This document shows, in pieces, positions 8,378 to 26,559 of a stretch of 64,000 bases of DNA (positions are counted from its first letter, which is position 1; every line of letters begins with the position of its first letter). The notes below the pieces were generated by a model. It did not search any database. It was not told where the DNA came from and saw nothing but the letters and a program-made list of their open reading frames with translations. Location of the stretch: NCBI GenBank assembly GCA_022340905.1, contig JAJDNB010000095.1, positions 10,967 to 74,966 of the forward strand. The letters are read 5' to 3'. The position numbers were made by a program, and so were the translations under genes. Source of the stretch: Deltaproteobacteria bacterium (GTDB lineage: Bacteria; Desulfobacterota; Syntrophobacteria; BM002).

Positions 8378-9835
8378 TCAGGTAAGGACATTTAGGATTT
8401 CGGTAACCGCGAGGTTTCCTATGTCTTGCAGCCCTTTCCTTTTCAGCTCGTCTTCACTAAACAGCTCTCTCACGAGTGAGTAGAGACCGGACCTGATAAA
8501 CCCTTCTTCATAGGTCCCAAGCCTGATGCCAAATTCCACTCGCTCTCGATTTGAGGGTGACAGATTTTCAATCACTTCTTTACTAACCCAGATAGTCCCG
8601 CCCTGAGAAAATTCACTGAGCTTTACTGCCTCCACCAAGGTGTCTCCCACCACAGTGAACTCGAACGCCGACGGCGAGGGCATCATTCCCAACCAGTCGC
8701 GTCCACAGTGGATGCCAATGTTGACTCTAAGGGTGTTCTTCCAGGTTTGTTTGCTTTTCCACTCCCGGTCGATCTCGCGTACCATACTTTTCAGAGCACT
8801 GGCGCACAACAAAGACTGAAATAGATGGTCATCTTCCCGGCCTGGCACTTCGAGAAAAAAACAAACACTACCTTCCGTGCAGGATCGGCCGGGTGTCGCA
8901 CCGTGCTCTCTGAAGCACCGGTGCCAACCGAGGATAATCTGATTGATCAGATCAAAGTATGCAGAGGGAGAAAGAGCTGTACGCAGATGAAACTCAGACT
9001 CAAGACTGACGGCAAGGATACACAAGGATGTTGGAGAGGAGGTTTTCCGGAAAAATGTAGGCTTCGGTACCTTCGTCCTTCCAGTGAGTAACTCGAGCAT
9101 CTGACCCAGTTGCATGCTAGCCGGTGGGTATAGCAAGAGAGTCCCTTCCGGCAGGGCCCACGAAAGGAGTGTGTAGTGCTCAGCTCCACCATGGTGATAT
9201 TTTACTGTCAGTGTTTGCCCATCAAATGGCCGAGATGGCGCCATCTCTGTTTCATCCCACAACTGTCTGAGTTGAATTAGCAGGTGGGAGTCCTCATCGC
9301 GGTTTAAAGAAAGGAAGATTTCTGCGCCCACGTCTCTCTTAGCCAATTTCATATGAAACGTGAGGATTTCTTTCCAATTGACAAAGCGATCCTGCAATTT
9401 CTCGATCAAAGAGGGATCCAGAAACCGTCGTCTAACCTGAGACCCAAGCCCTCTGATATTTTCTCCAACCAGCAATTCTTCAGCCACCGAGTTCAGGCCG
9501 ATGATCTCCCAACTTCGGCTGACAAGAATGGCGGGAAATACAATTTGGTCAAGCCATGGGTACATCAGAGGTTCCTCTATAGCTTTCGGAGGCTCCGTAT
9601 CTTCATCCATAAAGTGCATTGCAATTTGAGCCATTCTCATACCTTGGCCTTTAAGTTGCTGTATTTTCTCTATCCGTTCCACAACCCACTCGGGGAAAAA
9701 GCCGATTTTGGTGGGACCACCCGGCTCTTCTGGCGGCCGCACTGATGGAGAAGGAATGAGGTCCATACCAATATAATTGTTGAGTGTAGCCCTGGAAATG
9801 CCAGTACGGGACATTACTTCTTTGCTTGAGATCAT
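8378..9835 (-). CDS. MerR-family HTH regulator fused to a degenerate class III nucleotidyl-cyclase-like (CHD) domain
   Basis: N-terminus MISSKEVMSRTGISRATLNNYI is a MerR HTH. C-terminus RVNIGIHCGRDWLGMM..EFTVVGDTLVEAVKLSEFSQGGTIWVS matches the second half of the cyclase homology domain. In the first half the metal-binding Asp is replaced (ILAVSLESEF). Start is uncertain, either 9835 or 9886. Confidence 0.55.
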   Translation of the reverse strand: MISSKEVMSRTGISRATLNNYIGMDLIPSPSVRPPEEPGGPTKIGFFPEWVVERIEKIQQLKGQGMRMAQIAMHFMDEDTEPPKAIEEPLMYPWLDQIVFPAILVSRSWEIIGLNSVAEELLVGENIRGLGSQVRRRFLDPSLIEKLQDRFVNWKEILTFHMKLAKRDVGAEIFLSLNRDEDSHLLIQLRQLWDETEMAPSRPFDGQTLTVKYHHGGAEHYTLLSWALPEGTLLLYPPASMQLGQMLELLTGRTKVPKPTFFRKTSSPTSLCILAVSLESEFHLRTALSPSAYFDLINQIILGWHRCFREHGATPGRSCTEGSVCFFLEVPGREDDHLFQSLLCASALKSMVREIDREWKSKQTWKNTLRVNIGIHCGRDWLGMMPSPSAFEFTVVGDTLVEAVKLSEFSQGGTIWVSKEVIENLSPSNRERVEFGIRLGTYEEGFIRSGLYSLVRELFSEDELKRKGLQDIGNLAVTEILNVLT

Positions 9836-9962
9836 TCCTGTCACCGTCAAGGTTGAAAAAAAGTTCGGCAAAGAATACACATTCAATTTACCAAAATGGA
9901 GCCATATGCAGCAAGCCTACTCGAACCCAACAAAGTTTCTGCCGGTGTTTTGACCTAGGTCA

Positions 9963-10367
9963 ATGGATAAACTTTTCGCTCAAGTTAAACAGAAGAACAT
10001 TAAGGTGGGAAATATAACCATTCACGCTAAAGAAGGAGTTTGGACGCACATGAAAAAAGTAAACATGTTTGAGGAAAACAGTTTCAAGGACAGCGGACTG
10101 AGTCGTCTGCTCGTCCACGATTCTCCCTATTTCAAAATCTTAAATTTTAACTTCAAAGCCGGTCAGGAGCTACCCCTTCACTCTCATGACATAGAGGGAG
10201 AGGTGAGCATTGCTGTGCTCGAAGGAAACGGAGAGTTTTTGGGCGATAATGATGAAACTTTTCCGGCTGGACCTGGCGATATTTTGATCTCTGAAATAGC
10301 CGAGCCGCACGGCTTAAAAGCTGAAACCGATATGCGGGTTCTGGTGACCATTGCCCCGCCCATATAG
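9963..10367 (+). CDS. Cupin-domain protein
   Basis: LPLHSHDIEGEVSIAVLEGNGEF ... PAGPGDILISEIAEPHG, a two-motif cupin signature. Confidence 0.75.
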   Translation: MDKLFAQVKQKNIKVGNITIHAKEGVWTHMKKVNMFEENSFKDSGLSRLLVHDSPYFKILNFNFKAGQELPLHSHDIEGEVSIAVLEGNGEFLGDNDETFPAGPGDILISEIAEPHGLKAETDMRVLVTIAPPI

Positions 10368-11635: not shown

Positions 11636-13624
11636 CTAATCTACCTCACCGGCTTCAACATCCAGAGCCTGACGATCTGCCATATCCATGAGCACGCGCT
11701 CACGCTCACCAATAATACCCAGAGCCTCGCGTTTCTTGTCAATATGGTCGATCACCATGGCGGCCATCTCATAGGGATCGGTGGCAAAACCCCACTTGCC
11801 TAGACCCTGCTTCTCCAACCCGTCAAAGAGCAGCTTGTGAAACTTGGTCTCCGCTATGGTGGGGAAGGTAACGCCAAACACCGTATATATTCCAGAGGCC
11901 ACCACATACTGACCAATGGCTATAGCCTTCTCACTGTACCACTCAGGGGCAACTCCGGCCACCGGCAGATCTGCTATGGTCTCACCCAAACCACCAGTCT
12001 TCACCATCTCAGCACAGGCAACGAGGATCCGGCTGTTGTCCACACAGCTACCCAGTCCCAATACCGGGGGCATGCCTACGGTCTCACAGACCTCCTGCAA
12101 GCCATCACCTGCCAATACCGAGGCATCAGGCTTCATCAACCCGGCCTTGGCCAGAGCTATCTGGGAACAACCAGTCTGCACCACCAAAATGTCGTTTTTG
12201 ATCAGTTCTTTCACCAACTCAACATGCACATAGTCCTGACGCACCCTGGGATTGGTGCAGCCAACCACACCGGCAACTCCCCGAATACGACCATTGATGA
12301 TGTTGTCATTCAAGGGCACATACGATGCCCGGAAGGTACCACCAAGCATGTAGTTGATGTATTCGTGGCTGAAGCCGTGAATCCCCAAAGACTTATTCTG
12401 GGGAATCACTATCTTGGCCTTGCGATTCTTGAATCGCTTGATCGCCTCTTTCACCACCTTGTCCGTGCACTGCCTCGGTTTATGCTCCTCAAACTCAATG
12501 TGCTCCGCACCCTCCATCTTGGCTCGGGGATTGGTGGTGAAAAACTTGGTGCCATAACACTCAGCAAGAGGCGCCAGAGCAGGCATGATACACTGCACAT
12601 CCACTGCCATGGCATCCACTGCACCGGTGATCAAAACCGCCTCGGTGCTCATGAAATTACCCGCATGGGGTATCCCGTGACGACACAATACTTCGGCACC
12701 AGAGCAGCACATGCCCAAAATATTGATGCCTTCGGCTCCCGCTCCCTTAGCCTCTTCCAATAGCTTGGGATCATTTACCGAAGCAATCAAAGACTCAAAC
12801 AGGTTGGGCTCATGACCATTTACAATGATGTTCACCTGCTTCTCATCCAAATAACCCATGTCTACCCCAGCCAAAACCGGAGAGGGCGTGCCAAACAATA
12901 TGTCAGAGATCTCGGTGGCCACCATGGAACCACCCCAACCATCGGCAAGGGCTGTACGACTGCACTGCTTTACCATGTTCTCGTAGTCCTGATCCACTCC
13001 CATGTGGGTCCGGTGCATGATCTCCATGATCTCCCGCATGGCCCCACGGGGAACGATCCCCAGCTCGCGCCACTTGGCCAAGGTCTTGGGCGGTACCCGG
13101 CTGGCAAAGGGAATCTCACCCTCAACCTGAGTGTAGGTACGCTCCAATTCTTTGTAGAGATCCGTGGCTACCTCCTTGACCTCACGACCAGCTGTCTCGA
13201 TACCTAAACCTTCGGCTACATCGAAAAGCTTCTGCTCGTCTTTGATTTTGTAGTCCTTGATCTCACCATTTACCACGCCACGAAACACATCCAGCATGGT
13301 CATGCCGTGGTCCGTGTGGGCCGCAGTACCCGCTGCCACCATCCGGGCAAAGTTCCGCGAGGCGATGGTGTCGATGGTTGCCCCGCATATGCCCGTCTTC
13401 GCATAGGGATCCTTGGAGGACAGCCGGCAGGGACCCATGGAACAGTGCTTACAACAGGCAGAGTCAGCTCCTATGGGACAGGCCTTCATCTCCGCTGCCC
13501 GGTGAAAGGCGGTCTCTACCCCGTCTTCCGCTGCCTTGCGCAACATCTGCTGGGTGGATTTGCAGGTGGTTACCTGCATGATCGGTAGTTCTTTCTTTTT
13601 CTTCTCCTTTACCTCTTCTGCCAT
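11636..13624 (-). CDS. cooS: Anaerobic Ni-dependent carbon monoxide dehydrogenase catalytic subunit
   Basis: 662 aa. N-terminal cluster motif CPIGADSACCKHCSMGPCR with further Cys/His ligands. Homologous to the adjacent Hcp, as expected for the prismane/CODH family. Confidence 0.85.
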   Translation of the reverse strand: MAEEVKEKKKKELPIMQVTTCKSTQQMLRKAAEDGVETAFHRAAEMKACPIGADSACCKHCSMGPCRLSSKDPYAKTGICGATIDTIASRNFARMVAAGTAAHTDHGMTMLDVFRGVVNGEIKDYKIKDEQKLFDVAEGLGIETAGREVKEVATDLYKELERTYTQVEGEIPFASRVPPKTLAKWRELGIVPRGAMREIMEIMHRTHMGVDQDYENMVKQCSRTALADGWGGSMVATEISDILFGTPSPVLAGVDMGYLDEKQVNIIVNGHEPNLFESLIASVNDPKLLEEAKGAGAEGINILGMCCSGAEVLCRHGIPHAGNFMSTEAVLITGAVDAMAVDVQCIMPALAPLAECYGTKFFTTNPRAKMEGAEHIEFEEHKPRQCTDKVVKEAIKRFKNRKAKIVIPQNKSLGIHGFSHEYINYMLGGTFRASYVPLNDNIINGRIRGVAGVVGCTNPRVRQDYVHVELVKELIKNDILVVQTGCSQIALAKAGLMKPDASVLAGDGLQEVCETVGMPPVLGLGSCVDNSRILVACAEMVKTGGLGETIADLPVAGVAPEWYSEKAIAIGQYVVASGIYTVFGVTFPTIAETKFHKLLFDGLEKQGLGKWGFATDPYEMAAMVIDHIDKKREALGIIGERERVLMDMADRQALDVEAGEVD

Positions 13625-13938
13625 AGTTTTCTCCTTAAAAGATTCAGATAAATTTGCTCCCTGAATTTTGCTTGCTAGACCTTAAAGTCACTTGCTGTTT
13701 TGGAGACCTATAAAAAGGTGAGCAGTAATCGTGCCAGAAAGATGAATGCATAAAGTCATTTAATATTAACTAGTTACGATCAGGCAATAAACGAATCATT
13801 GTCCGGATTATGCCATAATGGAATAATGCCATTCCATTCTGGAGTTATCCTTGTAAAAGAGAATTCCCAGCGCTGTCGTCGCGGCAGCTTCTTACTAGAT
13901 AGGAAGATTTAAAATAATTTTTTCAGTTTTTTTCTTTC

Positions 13939-13952
13939 TTGACTTAAGTCAA
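13939..13952. promoter_or_regulatory. CRP/FNR-family (HcpR-type) binding palindrome TTGAC-TTAA-GTCAA about 95 bp upstream of hcp
   Basis: Perfect TTGACnnnnGTCAA inverted repeat. A TACAAT -10-like hexamer lies about 30 bp downstream (13981-13986). It sits in the 425-bp divergent cooS-hcp intergenic region. Confidence 0.5.
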
Positions 13953-14049
13953 TGCCGGTGACCATGCTATTTATTACAGTTACAATCAATTAATCTTCAA
14001 GAGCAAAAACAACAGTTAGTGTAAATAGATTCAGCTTTAGAAAAGGAGG

Positions 14050-15684
14050 ATGTACATGTTTTGTTATCAATGCGAGCAAACGGCAAAAGGTGAAGGGTGC
14101 ACCAAGATAGGGGTATGTGGCAAGGAACCCGAGGTTGCTGCCCTTCAAGATCTATTGACCTACGGACTTATCGGGCTTTCTCAATATGCTGTCGAGGGCC
14201 GTAAAGTTGGCGTTAGCGAGCGGGACGTCAATGTATTTACAGTCGAGGCTTCTTTTTCCACCTTGACTAATGTGGACTTCGATCCTGATCGCTTCGTGGG
14301 CTTGATCAATCAAGCGGTGGAAAAGCGAGAGGGACTGGCGGAGAAAGTCAAGGCTGCGGGCGGAAAAGTTGATTTCGCCGATGGGCCTGCCACCTTCAAA
14401 CCCGAGACCACCCTGGACGGCCTGATCCGGCAGGGAGAGGCAGTGGGCATTAAGTCCTATCCAGCAGACAATCCCGATATTCTTTCCCTGAAACACACGG
14501 TGCTCTTTGGTATCCGGGGAATATCCGCTTATGCAGACCATGCGCAGATTCTCGGACAAGAGGACGACACAGTCTATGGCTTCGTCCACGAGGCTCTTGC
14601 GGCACTGTGGAGAGAAGATCTCGGACTGGAAGATTGGGTTGGATTGGCCCTCAAGTGCGGTGAAATAAATCTCAGGACCATGGAACTTCTAGATGCTGGA
14701 AATACAGGAACCTACGGGCATCCTGTGCCAACAAAAGTTCCGTTGGGACATAAGAAAGGCAAGGCCATCCTGGTCTCGGGTCACGACCTGAAAGACATGG
14801 AAGAACTGCTCAAGCAGACACAAGGCAAGGGAATCCATATTTACACGCACGGCGAGATGCTACCTACCCACGGTTACCCGGAGCTAAAGAAATACGAGCA
14901 TTTTTACGGTCATTATGGCACAGCTTGGCAGAACCAGGGCAAAGAGTTCATGCAGTTCCCTGGTGCTATCTTGATGACCACAAACTGTATCCAGAGGCCC
15001 AAGGAGGAGTACAGGAATAACATCTTTACCTGCGGCCTGGTTGGCTGGCCCGGGATAGCCCACATCTCCGACCGCAACTTTCAGCCGGTCATCGATCGAG
15101 CTCTTGCCCTACCGGGATTCCAGGAGGATGAAAACGGCAAGGATGTAATGGTGGGATTCGGCAGGAATACCGTCTTGGGTGTTGCCGATAAGGTCATCGA
15201 GGCAGTAAAGGGCAAAGCCATCCGTCACTTCTTTGTAGTGGCAGGCTGCGATGGAGCCAAGCCCGGTCGGAATTACTACACCGAGTTCGTGGAAAAGGTT
15301 CCCGAAGATACCGTGGTTTTGACCTTTGCTTGCGGCAAGTTTCGATTCTTCGACAAGGACCTGGGAGACATCGGTGGTATTCCGAGGTTGCTGGACATTG
15401 GCCAGTGCAATGACGCCCATTCGGCAATCCAGATTGCCGTGGCCCTGGCTAACGCTTTTAATGTAGGAGTCAATGATTTGCCCCTGTCGATAATCTGCTC
15501 GTGGTATGAGCAAAAGGCAGTGGCGATCCTTTTGTCCTTGCTCCATCTGGGAATCAAGGACATTCGCCTTGGACCTTCTCTACCGGCCTTTGTTTCCCCC
15601 AACGTCCTCGATGTCTTGGTGAAGAACTTCGACATCAAACCCATTACCACGCCGGACCAGGATCTCAAGGCGATTTTGGGATAG
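14050..15684 (+). CDS. hcp: Hybrid-cluster protein (hydroxylamine reductase)
   Basis: N-terminus MFCYQCEQTAKGEGCTKIGVCGK, 544 aa. RBS AAAGGAGGA. Confidence 0.9.
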   Translation: MYMFCYQCEQTAKGEGCTKIGVCGKEPEVAALQDLLTYGLIGLSQYAVEGRKVGVSERDVNVFTVEASFSTLTNVDFDPDRFVGLINQAVEKREGLAEKVKAAGGKVDFADGPATFKPETTLDGLIRQGEAVGIKSYPADNPDILSLKHTVLFGIRGISAYADHAQILGQEDDTVYGFVHEALAALWREDLGLEDWVGLALKCGEINLRTMELLDAGNTGTYGHPVPTKVPLGHKKGKAILVSGHDLKDMEELLKQTQGKGIHIYTHGEMLPTHGYPELKKYEHFYGHYGTAWQNQGKEFMQFPGAILMTTNCIQRPKEEYRNNIFTCGLVGWPGIAHISDRNFQPVIDRALALPGFQEDENGKDVMVGFGRNTVLGVADKVIEAVKGKAIRHFFVVAGCDGAKPGRNYYTEFVEKVPEDTVVLTFACGKFRFFDKDLGDIGGIPRLLDIGQCNDAHSAIQIAVALANAFNVGVNDLPLSIICSWYEQKAVAILLSLLHLGIKDIRLGPSLPAFVSPNVLDVLVKNFDIKPITTPDQDLKAILG

Positions 15685-25527: not shown

Positions 25528-26559
25528 GTGCCCATACCGGGAAACCTCCTAACTACTGCCATGGCAGTAATGCCCCACAGGGACGTAGAGCGGGCCCTCG
25601 AGGTGGCTCTTTCCTTGGATATACCATTCTGGCCGCAATTACCGCTCGTGAGCTACTACGAGGATATGTATGTGCAGGCATCGGAACACTTTCCCGGGAT
25701 TGTCCTTGATCTGGAAAAACGAAAGCTGCGTTTTTCTATGGACAAGTTCGTGGCTGAATTTGAAGAGACCATGGCCCATTTTGATGAACCGGAATATTTT
25801 GATATCAGTGAACACTACTCAGTGGTGTACCACAGGTTCCTCCAGAAAGATTTCTCCCGGCGACCGGCGATAAGGGGGCAAATAGAAGGGCCCATCAGTT
25901 TCGGCTTCAACGTGGTGGACCAGGACGACCGGCCTATCCTGTTTAATGATACCGTTCGACCGTTCCTCATGGAATTTATGGCGAAACGGGTCAATGTGCA
26001 ACTGCAAAGGTTAAAGGAGCTTAATCCTAACGCTTTCATGTTTGTTGACGAACCTGGTTTGCAGTTTCTCTTTAGTGCCTTGGCCGGTTACAGTGACCTG
26101 GCGGCGCGAGGTGACATGGAAAACTTCTTTGCCATGATAGAAAGACCCCGGGGGGTACACCTCTGCGGCAATCCGGACTGGGACTTTCTGCTCGGCCTGG
26201 ACATGGATGTGCTTTCAATGGATGTTTACAGCAACGGCGAGGTTTTTACTCAGTACGGACCATCCATCAAGAAATTTTTGGACCGGGGAGGAAGGCTGGT
26301 CTGGGGTATTGTGCCAAGCAACGTGGAACCATTCGAAGAGGAGAACCTGGATACTCTGGAACAACGTCTAGTAGGTATCTGGACTGCCCTGGATAAGAAG
26401 GGGATAGATCGGGAATTTCTTCTCTCGCGAAGCATGCTCTCCCCCGCGACCTGTTGTCTGGTAAATCCTGACGGCGAGAAAACTGTGGAAAAGGCTTTTG
26501 GGACGACCAGGCAACTTTCCCGACGGCTAAGGCGGAAAATGAACCTGTTGGAGGGCTAG
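25528..26559 (+). CDS. Cobalamin-independent methionine-synthase-like (MetE C-terminal / URO-D superfamily) putative Zn methyltransferase
   Basis: FVDEPGL (cf. IQIDEPA), GVHLCGNPDW (His-x-Cys) and C-terminal PATCCLVNP resemble the MetE zinc and substrate motifs. Assignment is tentative. Confidence 0.4.
   Translation: MPIPGNLLTTAMAVMPHRDVERALEVALSLDIPFWPQLPLVSYYEDMYVQASEHFPGIVLDLEKRKLRFSMDKFVAEFEETMAHFDEPEYFDISEHYSVVYHRFLQKDFSRRPAIRGQIEGPISFGFNVVDQDDRPILFNDTVRPFLMEFMAKRVNVQLQRLKELNPNAFMFVDEPGLQFLFSALAGYSDLAARGDMENFFAMIERPRGVHLCGNPDWDFLLGLDMDVLSMDVYSNGEVFTQYGPSIKKFLDRGGRLVWGIVPSNVEPFEEENLDTLEQRLVGIWTALDKKGIDREFLLSRSMLSPATCCLVNPDGEKTVEKAFGTTRQLSRRLRRKMNLLEG

Follow-up and report, generated by a model that had tools for sequence, protein, structure and literature searches.

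A palindrome between divergent cooS and hcp genes of an uncultured delta-proteobacterium is predicted to be an HcpR-type operator of hcp, with cooS probably under separate control

The genes for a hybrid cluster protein and a carbon monoxide dehydrogenase lie back to back in the MAG of an uncultured delta-proteobacterium, and the gap between them contains a perfect palindrome. Which regulator would recognize this palindrome, and does it serve one of the two genes or both? The analysis covered a 64-kb stretch of DNA, hereafter referred to as the window. In it, cooS, the gene of the catalytic subunit of anaerobic Ni-CO dehydrogenase, occupies positions 11636–13624 on the minus strand (TIGR01702, 604 bits; cutoff 478), and hcp, coding for a 542-amino-acid hybrid cluster protein of the hydroxylamine reductase family, occupies positions 14056–15684 on the plus strand (NF003658, 819 bits; TIGR01703, 755 bits; PF03063). 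The cooS-hcp gap (13625–14049) is 425 bp long, or 431 bp when the ATG at 14056 is taken as the hcp start, and has a GC content of 35.1%, compared to 48.3% for the window. The original prediction held that the palindrome is an HcpR/FNR-type operator of hcp, possibly shared with cooS.

The 14-bp perfect palindrome TTGACTTAAGTCAA was found at 13939–13952 of the plus strand, exactly as predicted. Together with its flanks it reads ttcTTGACTTAAGTCAAtgc, and its wider surroundings are ttttctttcTTGACTTAAGTCAAtgccggtgacc. The pattern TTGAC-N4-GTCAA is matched perfectly at exactly two places in the window, 13939 and 9950, both of them intergenic. The chance expectation was obtained from 100 dinucleotide-preserving shuffles: 0.07 perfect sites per window, with two or more sites in none of the 100 shuffles. 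Perfect sites are thus far more frequent than chance would predict. Sites with up to two mismatches were found at chance frequency (36 versus 33 expected), so only the two perfect sites are meaningful. The box at hcp matches the core of the published HcpR motif of non-Desulfovibrio delta-proteobacteria, wyTTGACnnnnGTCAArw (PMC1274295), at ten of ten positions; of its flanks, 5′ 'tc' fits 'wy' and 3′ 'tg' misses 'rw'.

Conservation of the box was assessed by an Hcp scan of GTDB representative genomes, which yielded 80 loci with 66–93% protein identity, 78 of them with usable upstream sequence. The box was sought within 400 bp of the hcp start in each relative. A perfect copy was present in 31 of the 78 upstream regions and a copy with at most one mismatch in 54, mostly between −80 and −130 from the hcp start. 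Per base, perfect boxes are enriched 268-fold upstream of hcp over the rest of these loci (1.27 Mb). The question whether the site is conserved upstream of hcp orthologues is therefore answered in the affirmative. No box with one mismatch or fewer was found in the other 24 of the 78 upstream regions, so control of hcp through the box is not universal. Alignment of the 54 sites gave the motif yTT-TTGAC-yTAr-GTCAA-kG, with a nearly invariant TA at the centre (48 of the 54 sites have the T and 52 the A) and, as the second base 3′ of the box, a G in 48 of the 54; both window sites have this G. A position weight matrix built from the same 54 sites (median training score 26.5 bits) gave the hcp box 30.1 bits in the hcp orientation, the highest score in the window, and 19.3 bits in the reverse one. 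The two perfect boxes are the only matches of at least 10 bits in the 64 kb.

The closest relative, locus L044 (CP070689.1, the chromosome of the MAG 'Deltaproteobacteria bacterium bin63', with Hcp 93% identical), shares the cooS-hcp divergon and carries an identical box at −116. Identity around the L044 box extends over 30 bp, and directly upstream of this block the sequence has diverged. In an eight-way alignment, in which six metagenomic relatives were added to the window and L044, no column ahead of the ribosome-binding site is invariant apart from those of the box and a few promoter positions. Separately, L044 matches hcp only as far as residue 416 and loses DNA synteny with the window at window position 15302, a pattern suggestive of truncation or rearrangement of hcp, or of a break in the assembly.

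The placement of the box relative to the promoter depends on where hcp begins. The hcp ribosome-binding site GGAGG (14045–14049, plus strand) is conserved in the eight-way alignment; it abuts a first ATG at 14050 and precedes a second one at 14056 by 6 nt. Hcp read from the second ATG begins with MFCYQCEQ and aligns with each of the 80 relatives from its first residue. Since GGAGG abuts 14050 and MFCYQCEQ aligns from the first residue, hcp almost certainly starts at 14056, and the box is found at −117 from this ATG.

Counted from the first base of the box, a TAnnnT hexamer is found at offset +36 in 31 of the 54 box-bearing hcp loci, and a C/A pair is conserved across loci at offsets +47 to +49. 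The corresponding hexamer of the window, TACAGT (13975–13980, plus strand), is our predicted −10 element of hcp; its T13975, A13976 and T13980 are invariant in the eight-way alignment. The conserved C/A points to a transcription start at CA 13987–13988 of the plus strand, which would give a 5′ UTR of ~68 nt. The box centre, 13945.5, is 29.5 bp before the −10 hexamer, and TAnnnT at +36 together with CA at +47 to +49 places it ~41.5 bp before the likely transcription start. In textbook class II promoters, CRP/FNR activators bind at −41.5, and the predicted hcp promoter has this arrangement. The hexamer originally proposed as the −10 element, TACAAT (13981–13986), directly follows TACAGT, is less well conserved and is probably the wrong one of the two; the distance of about 45 bp given between the box centre and TACAAT is in fact 35.5 bp to its first base. 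A scan for a σ70 consensus returned GTGACC-17-TACAAT at 13958–13986; this candidate was dropped, as the positions invariant across relatives are those of TACAGT. A terminator-like hairpin at 13872–13888 was dismissed, being located in the part of the gap least conserved in comparison with L044. An Rfam search of the gap revealed no RNA family, only a sub-threshold snoRNA match that was treated as noise.

Regulator genes were sought in the hcp loci with E. coli CRP and FNR as seeds. In 25 of the 80 loci a CRP/FNR-family gene was found no further than 10 kb from hcp, and about 20 of these genes are divergent from hcp and directly upstream of it. The box is present in all 25 loci with such a gene, and none of the 24 box-less loci contains one (Fisher p = 1.2e-5). 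All six linked regulators that were scanned have cNMP_binding and HTH_Crp_2 domains. The linked regulators contain 0–4 cysteines, and the C-x2-C-x5-C motif of the FNR cluster is absent from all 25. Their recognition helix conforms to P-E-x-x-S-R in 23 of 25 cases, most often as G-T-I-P-E-T-L-S-R, so that CRP Arg180, Glu181 and Arg185 correspond to Pro, Glu and Arg; Pro is replaced by Ser in L023 and by Ala in L047. HcpR proteins with Pro or Ser in place of Arg180 are reported to recognize wyTTGACnnnnGTCAArw and to have a regulon centred on hcp, while Desulfovibrio HcpR, which has Arg180, recognizes a CRP-like TGTGA box (PMC1274295, PMC545781). Judged by its residues, the helix of the linked regulators fits the published HcpR signature for the TTGAC-N4-GTCAA motif. 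The Pro-Glu-Arg helix subtype is supported by comparative data (PMC1274295, PMC545781) and by expression data from a D. gigas mutant (PMC4534486).

No CRP/FNR gene was detected within the 64-kb window by Pfam analysis of ~50 ORFs or by phmmer with CRP and FNR, and an HMM of the 25 HcpR proteins had no match in the window even at E values up to 10. The closest relative, L044, likewise has no CRP/FNR gene within 10 kb of hcp. As 29 of the 54 box-bearing loci are without a CRP/FNR gene at this distance, a regulator gene located far from hcp is not unusual.

The second perfect box, TTGACCTAGGTCAA (9950–9963, plus strand; 24.7 bits), is located 100 bp upstream of the ATG of a 105-amino-acid cupin gene (10050–10367, plus strand; PF07883) with an AAGGAG ribosome-binding site upstream. 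The start at 10050 is confirmed by a 100%-identical NCBI protein (P0001) annotated at 105 amino acids. A TAAACA hexamer is found at offset +36 from this box (9986–9991). The cupin gene is a probable second target of HcpR, and boxes accompany its relatives in four settings. In L040, the cupin gene directly follows hcp in the order nrfH-multihaem-hcp-cupin, with a perfect box upstream of hcp. In L161 and L162–L171, where the cupin gene is syntenic with the window, the box is at −100, identical in L161 and with two mismatches in L162–L171. A perfect box precedes norB by 260 bp in the norB-cupin-DUF364 operon of L172–L179, and stand-alone cupin genes (L182–L187) have TTGACGCACGTCAA at −116 with TATTAA at +36. 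A cupin gene is already part of the Desulfovibrionales HcpR regulon, as validated in D. gigas (PMC4534486), and a cupin behind an HcpR box would fit this known picture. PDB entry 2Q30, a full-length relative of the cupin (E 4.5e-35), is deposited as 'Uncharacterized protein'.

Two further features were noted around the second box. The octamer TGCCGGTG occurs both directly 3′ of the hcp box (13953–13960) and just 5′ of the cupin box (9940–9947). L044 and L095 have it next to the hcp box, L162 lacks it next to the cupin box, and its recurrence is probably a coincidence. Divergent from the cupin gene, and syntenic with it in L162–L171, is the gene of a 485-amino-acid protein (8378–9835, minus strand) whose N-terminus has a weak MerR-type HTH and whose C-terminal domain resembles class III nucleotidyl cyclases (PF00211, 24.8 bits).

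We consider it highly probable that the palindrome at 13939–13952 is the operator of an HcpR-type regulator of the CRP/FNR family which would activate hcp from a class II position under NO. The original assignment of the box to hcp as an HcpR/FNR-type operator is supported by the motif class, by conservation and by the hcpR-type genes linked to the box in relatives. According to the proposed mechanism, HcpR, a CRP/FNR-family protein devoid of the FNR iron-sulfur cysteine motif, would bind as a dimer across the −35 position, to the box centred ~41.5 bp before the hcp transcription start, and recruit RNA polymerase to a promoter with only a −10 element (TACAGT). The activating signal of HcpR would be nitric oxide or nitrosative stress, and hcp would be switched on when nitrate or nitrite respiration yields NO; nar and nrfH/multihaem genes are located just downstream of hcp. 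The box at 9950–9963 would put the small cupin gene under the same regulator, and the cognate HcpR would be encoded outside the window. Binding, the direction of regulation, the signal and the presence of hcpR in this genome are the parts of this scheme that we infer; for regulator binding and for induction by NO or nitrite, the support is by analogy with D. gigas (PMC4534486).

The only serious rival is that a different CRP/FNR paralogue, an oxygen-sensing FNR or a DNR/NnrR-like protein, binds the box, in which case hcp would answer anoxia and not NO. FNR and DNR/NnrR-like regulators recognize the closely related TTGAT-N4-ATCAA, and the one-mismatch box variants of relatives, mostly TTGAT or ATCAA, overlap the FNR consensus; moreover, the cognate regulator of this genome is not seen in the window. 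The promoter layout is also that of E. coli FNR class II promoters (TTGAT-N4-ATCAA at −41.5), which likewise have a 14-bp palindrome centred 29.5 bp before the first base of the −10 hexamer and, as here, no recognizable −35 hexamer. However, the E. coli FNR half-site ends in T and the window half-site in C. Box position 5 is C in 40 of the 54 sites, and both window sites are perfect TTGAC/GTCAA, with C and G at positions 5 and 10. Unlike E. coli FNR, the box-linked regulators of relatives are without the Fe-S cysteine cluster, which argues that the signal would not be oxygen, and the same 23 of 25 have the HcpR-specific Pro at CRP position 180. Control by such a paralogue is in our opinion unlikely.

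Far less probable is that the box is the operator of the 485-amino-acid MerR-like/cyclase-domain regulator encoded beside the second box. The adjacency of its gene to the 9950 box and the synteny kept in L162–L171 would agree with this, but the box also precedes hcp and cupin relatives without this regulator, for example in L040 and L172–L187, and none of the 80 hcp loci contains a homologue of it. MerR-type operators are normally located between the −35 and −10 elements, which also counts against this reading. Finally, the palindrome could have arisen by chance or be a bare σ70 −35 hexamer: TTGACT matches five of the six −35 consensus positions, and the region is AT-rich. Against this stand the expectation of 0.07 sites per window, the absence of a −10 hexamer 16–18 bp downstream of TTGACT and the conservation of both half-sites and the central TA across dozens of genomes; comparison of these sequences leaves this reading effectively refuted. 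The HcpR-type operator of hcp is thus the preferred reading of the box.

Next comes the question of whether this operator also serves cooS. A shared bidirectional operator, through which HcpR would tie CO oxidation to NO stress, is suggested by the location of a perfect palindrome in the common gap and by a TATTTT hexamer (TAnnnT) found at offset +36 on the minus strand as well; in D. vulgaris, HcpR sites are predicted upstream of a CODH-associated hydrogenase operon (PMC545781). On the other hand, the box is 315 bp away from the cooS ATG, and in relatives the box-cooS distance varies from 264 to 557 bp, while the box-hcp distance is steady near 105–117 bp. The flanks of the box, too, favour the hcp orientation, as the matrix scores given above indicate. 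A CooS metagenome scan gave 80 loci. In six of them cooS is divergent from hcp; all six have the box, as does L044. Among the 69 scanned loci in which cooS is not accompanied by an hcp match, the search up to 600 bp gave no box scoring 12 bits or more, with the exception of a weak 12.3-bit match in L143. The box tracks hcp and not cooS, and cooS is probably not under the HcpR box; the proposal that cooS shares the operator is contradicted by these data, and we regard joint control as quite improbable.

Instead, cooS appears to have regulatory elements of its own. A σ54-type −24/−12 element, CTGGCACGATTACTGCT, with one mismatch to TGGCAC-N5-TTGCW, is located at 13721–13737 of the minus strand, ~100 nt upstream of the cooS ATG. 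Approximately 95 bp further upstream is an inverted repeat, I1 (13805–13850, minus strand), with 20-nt arms (13805–13824 and 13831–13850) that are 80% complementary, a 6-nt spacer and the core CCAnAATGGAAT-N6-ATTCCATTnTGG; this repeat may serve cooS as an enhancer (UAS). The GG and GC of the σ54-type element are found at the same place in L044, L082, L087, L090, L092, L095, L112 and L153, and the inverted repeat is conserved in the same eight loci, where both precede a monofunctional cooS. Of these, L112 keeps both features without the box and without hcp, which also speaks against a shared operator. The density of σ54-like elements upstream of these cooS genes is ~4 times that within the genes. 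This density statistic is modest support, and the σ54 module of cooS is probable and not proven. A search for the GAFTGA motif revealed no gene of an enhancer-binding protein in the window or in close loci, L097 excepted.

The CooA operator is given as TGTCGGCTAGCCGACA (PMC545781, Table 10). The corresponding palindrome, TGTCR-N6-YGACA, was not found in 13625–14055, where the only inverted repeats are I1, I2 and the HcpR box. We tentatively suggest that an enhancer-binding protein and σ54 control the Ni-CO dehydrogenase gene, so that the gap would integrate two separate signals for divergent prismane-family enzymes; this possibility falls somewhat short of an even chance. To our knowledge, the CO-responsive regulators described are CooA, RcoM and CorQR. 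If true, control of cooS by σ54 and an enhancer-binding protein would be of a different kind. A full-text literature search that combined cooS, σ54 and enhancer-binding protein found no paper.

Comparison with known systems places the hcp box in a familiar context. The core TTGAC-N4-GTCAA is identical to that of the HcpR regulon of Geobacter, Desulfuromonas, Desulfotalea and two cyanobacteria (PMC545781, PMC1274295). In the regulon described by Rodionov et al. in 2004/2005 the primary target is hcp, as here; the published sites are at −80 to −126 from the ATG, a range that includes the −117 of the window, and the Arg180-to-Pro helix signature is common to the Rodionov HcpR and the linked regulators of related loci. 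The second site of the window, tTTTGACCTAGGTCAAtg, also fits the Rodionov 2004 consensus ATTTGACCNNGGTCAAAT. In contrast to that regulon, hcpR is not adjacent to hcp here, the nar and nrfH-type genes of the window carry no box, although nar, nrfHA and frdX are published members, and the only second target in the window is the cupin gene. In D. gigas, TTGAy-N4-rTCAAGG sites precede hcp, frdx, nrfA and a cupin gene (PMC4534486). These HcpR1 sites share the downstream G with the window sites, and the targets of D. gigas HcpR1 include hcp and the cupin-domain gene DGI_2602, just as hcp and a cupin gene carry boxes in the window. In D. gigas hcpR1 adjoins hcp, whereas there is no hcpR gene in the window, and the source of the latter is an uncultured MAG with a respiratory Nar nitrate reductase.

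The hcp box is thus an ordinary further example of a regulon predicted in 2004–2005 and partly validated since, and current understanding is unchanged. The analysis would place hcp and a small cupin gene in the HcpR nitrosative-stress regulon of an uncultured, nitrate-respiring delta-proteobacterial MAG. The published motif receives modest refinements, namely the nearly invariant central TA, the G two bases 3′ of the box and a fixed −41.5 geometry across about 50 genomes. Further additions are the corrected −10 hexamer and hcp start codon, as well as a cooS gene that appears to be separately wired, probably through σ54. The value of these results is in annotation and in the design of experiments.

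The genes downstream of hcp are narGHJI, an MFS (narK-like) transporter gene, an FmdE-like gene, a PAS protein gene, a 343-amino-acid ORF without a family match, and the genes of an nrfH-type cytochrome, a multihaem cytochrome and a hybrid histidine kinase. No matrix match of at least 10 bits was found upstream of narG, narK or nrfH, or elsewhere in the window beyond the two boxes. In relatives, HcpR boxes also precede narG (L005, position 12378) and a norB operon and a DUF438/hemerythrin/PAS gene (L172, positions 492 and 2394). The 343-amino-acid ORF (25528–26559, plus strand) has no Pfam, NCBIfam or PDB sequence match. Its strong homologues (E 1e-126 to 1e-190) are found directly beside hcp in three other genomes (L019, L029 and L080), which marks the product as an hcp-linked protein.
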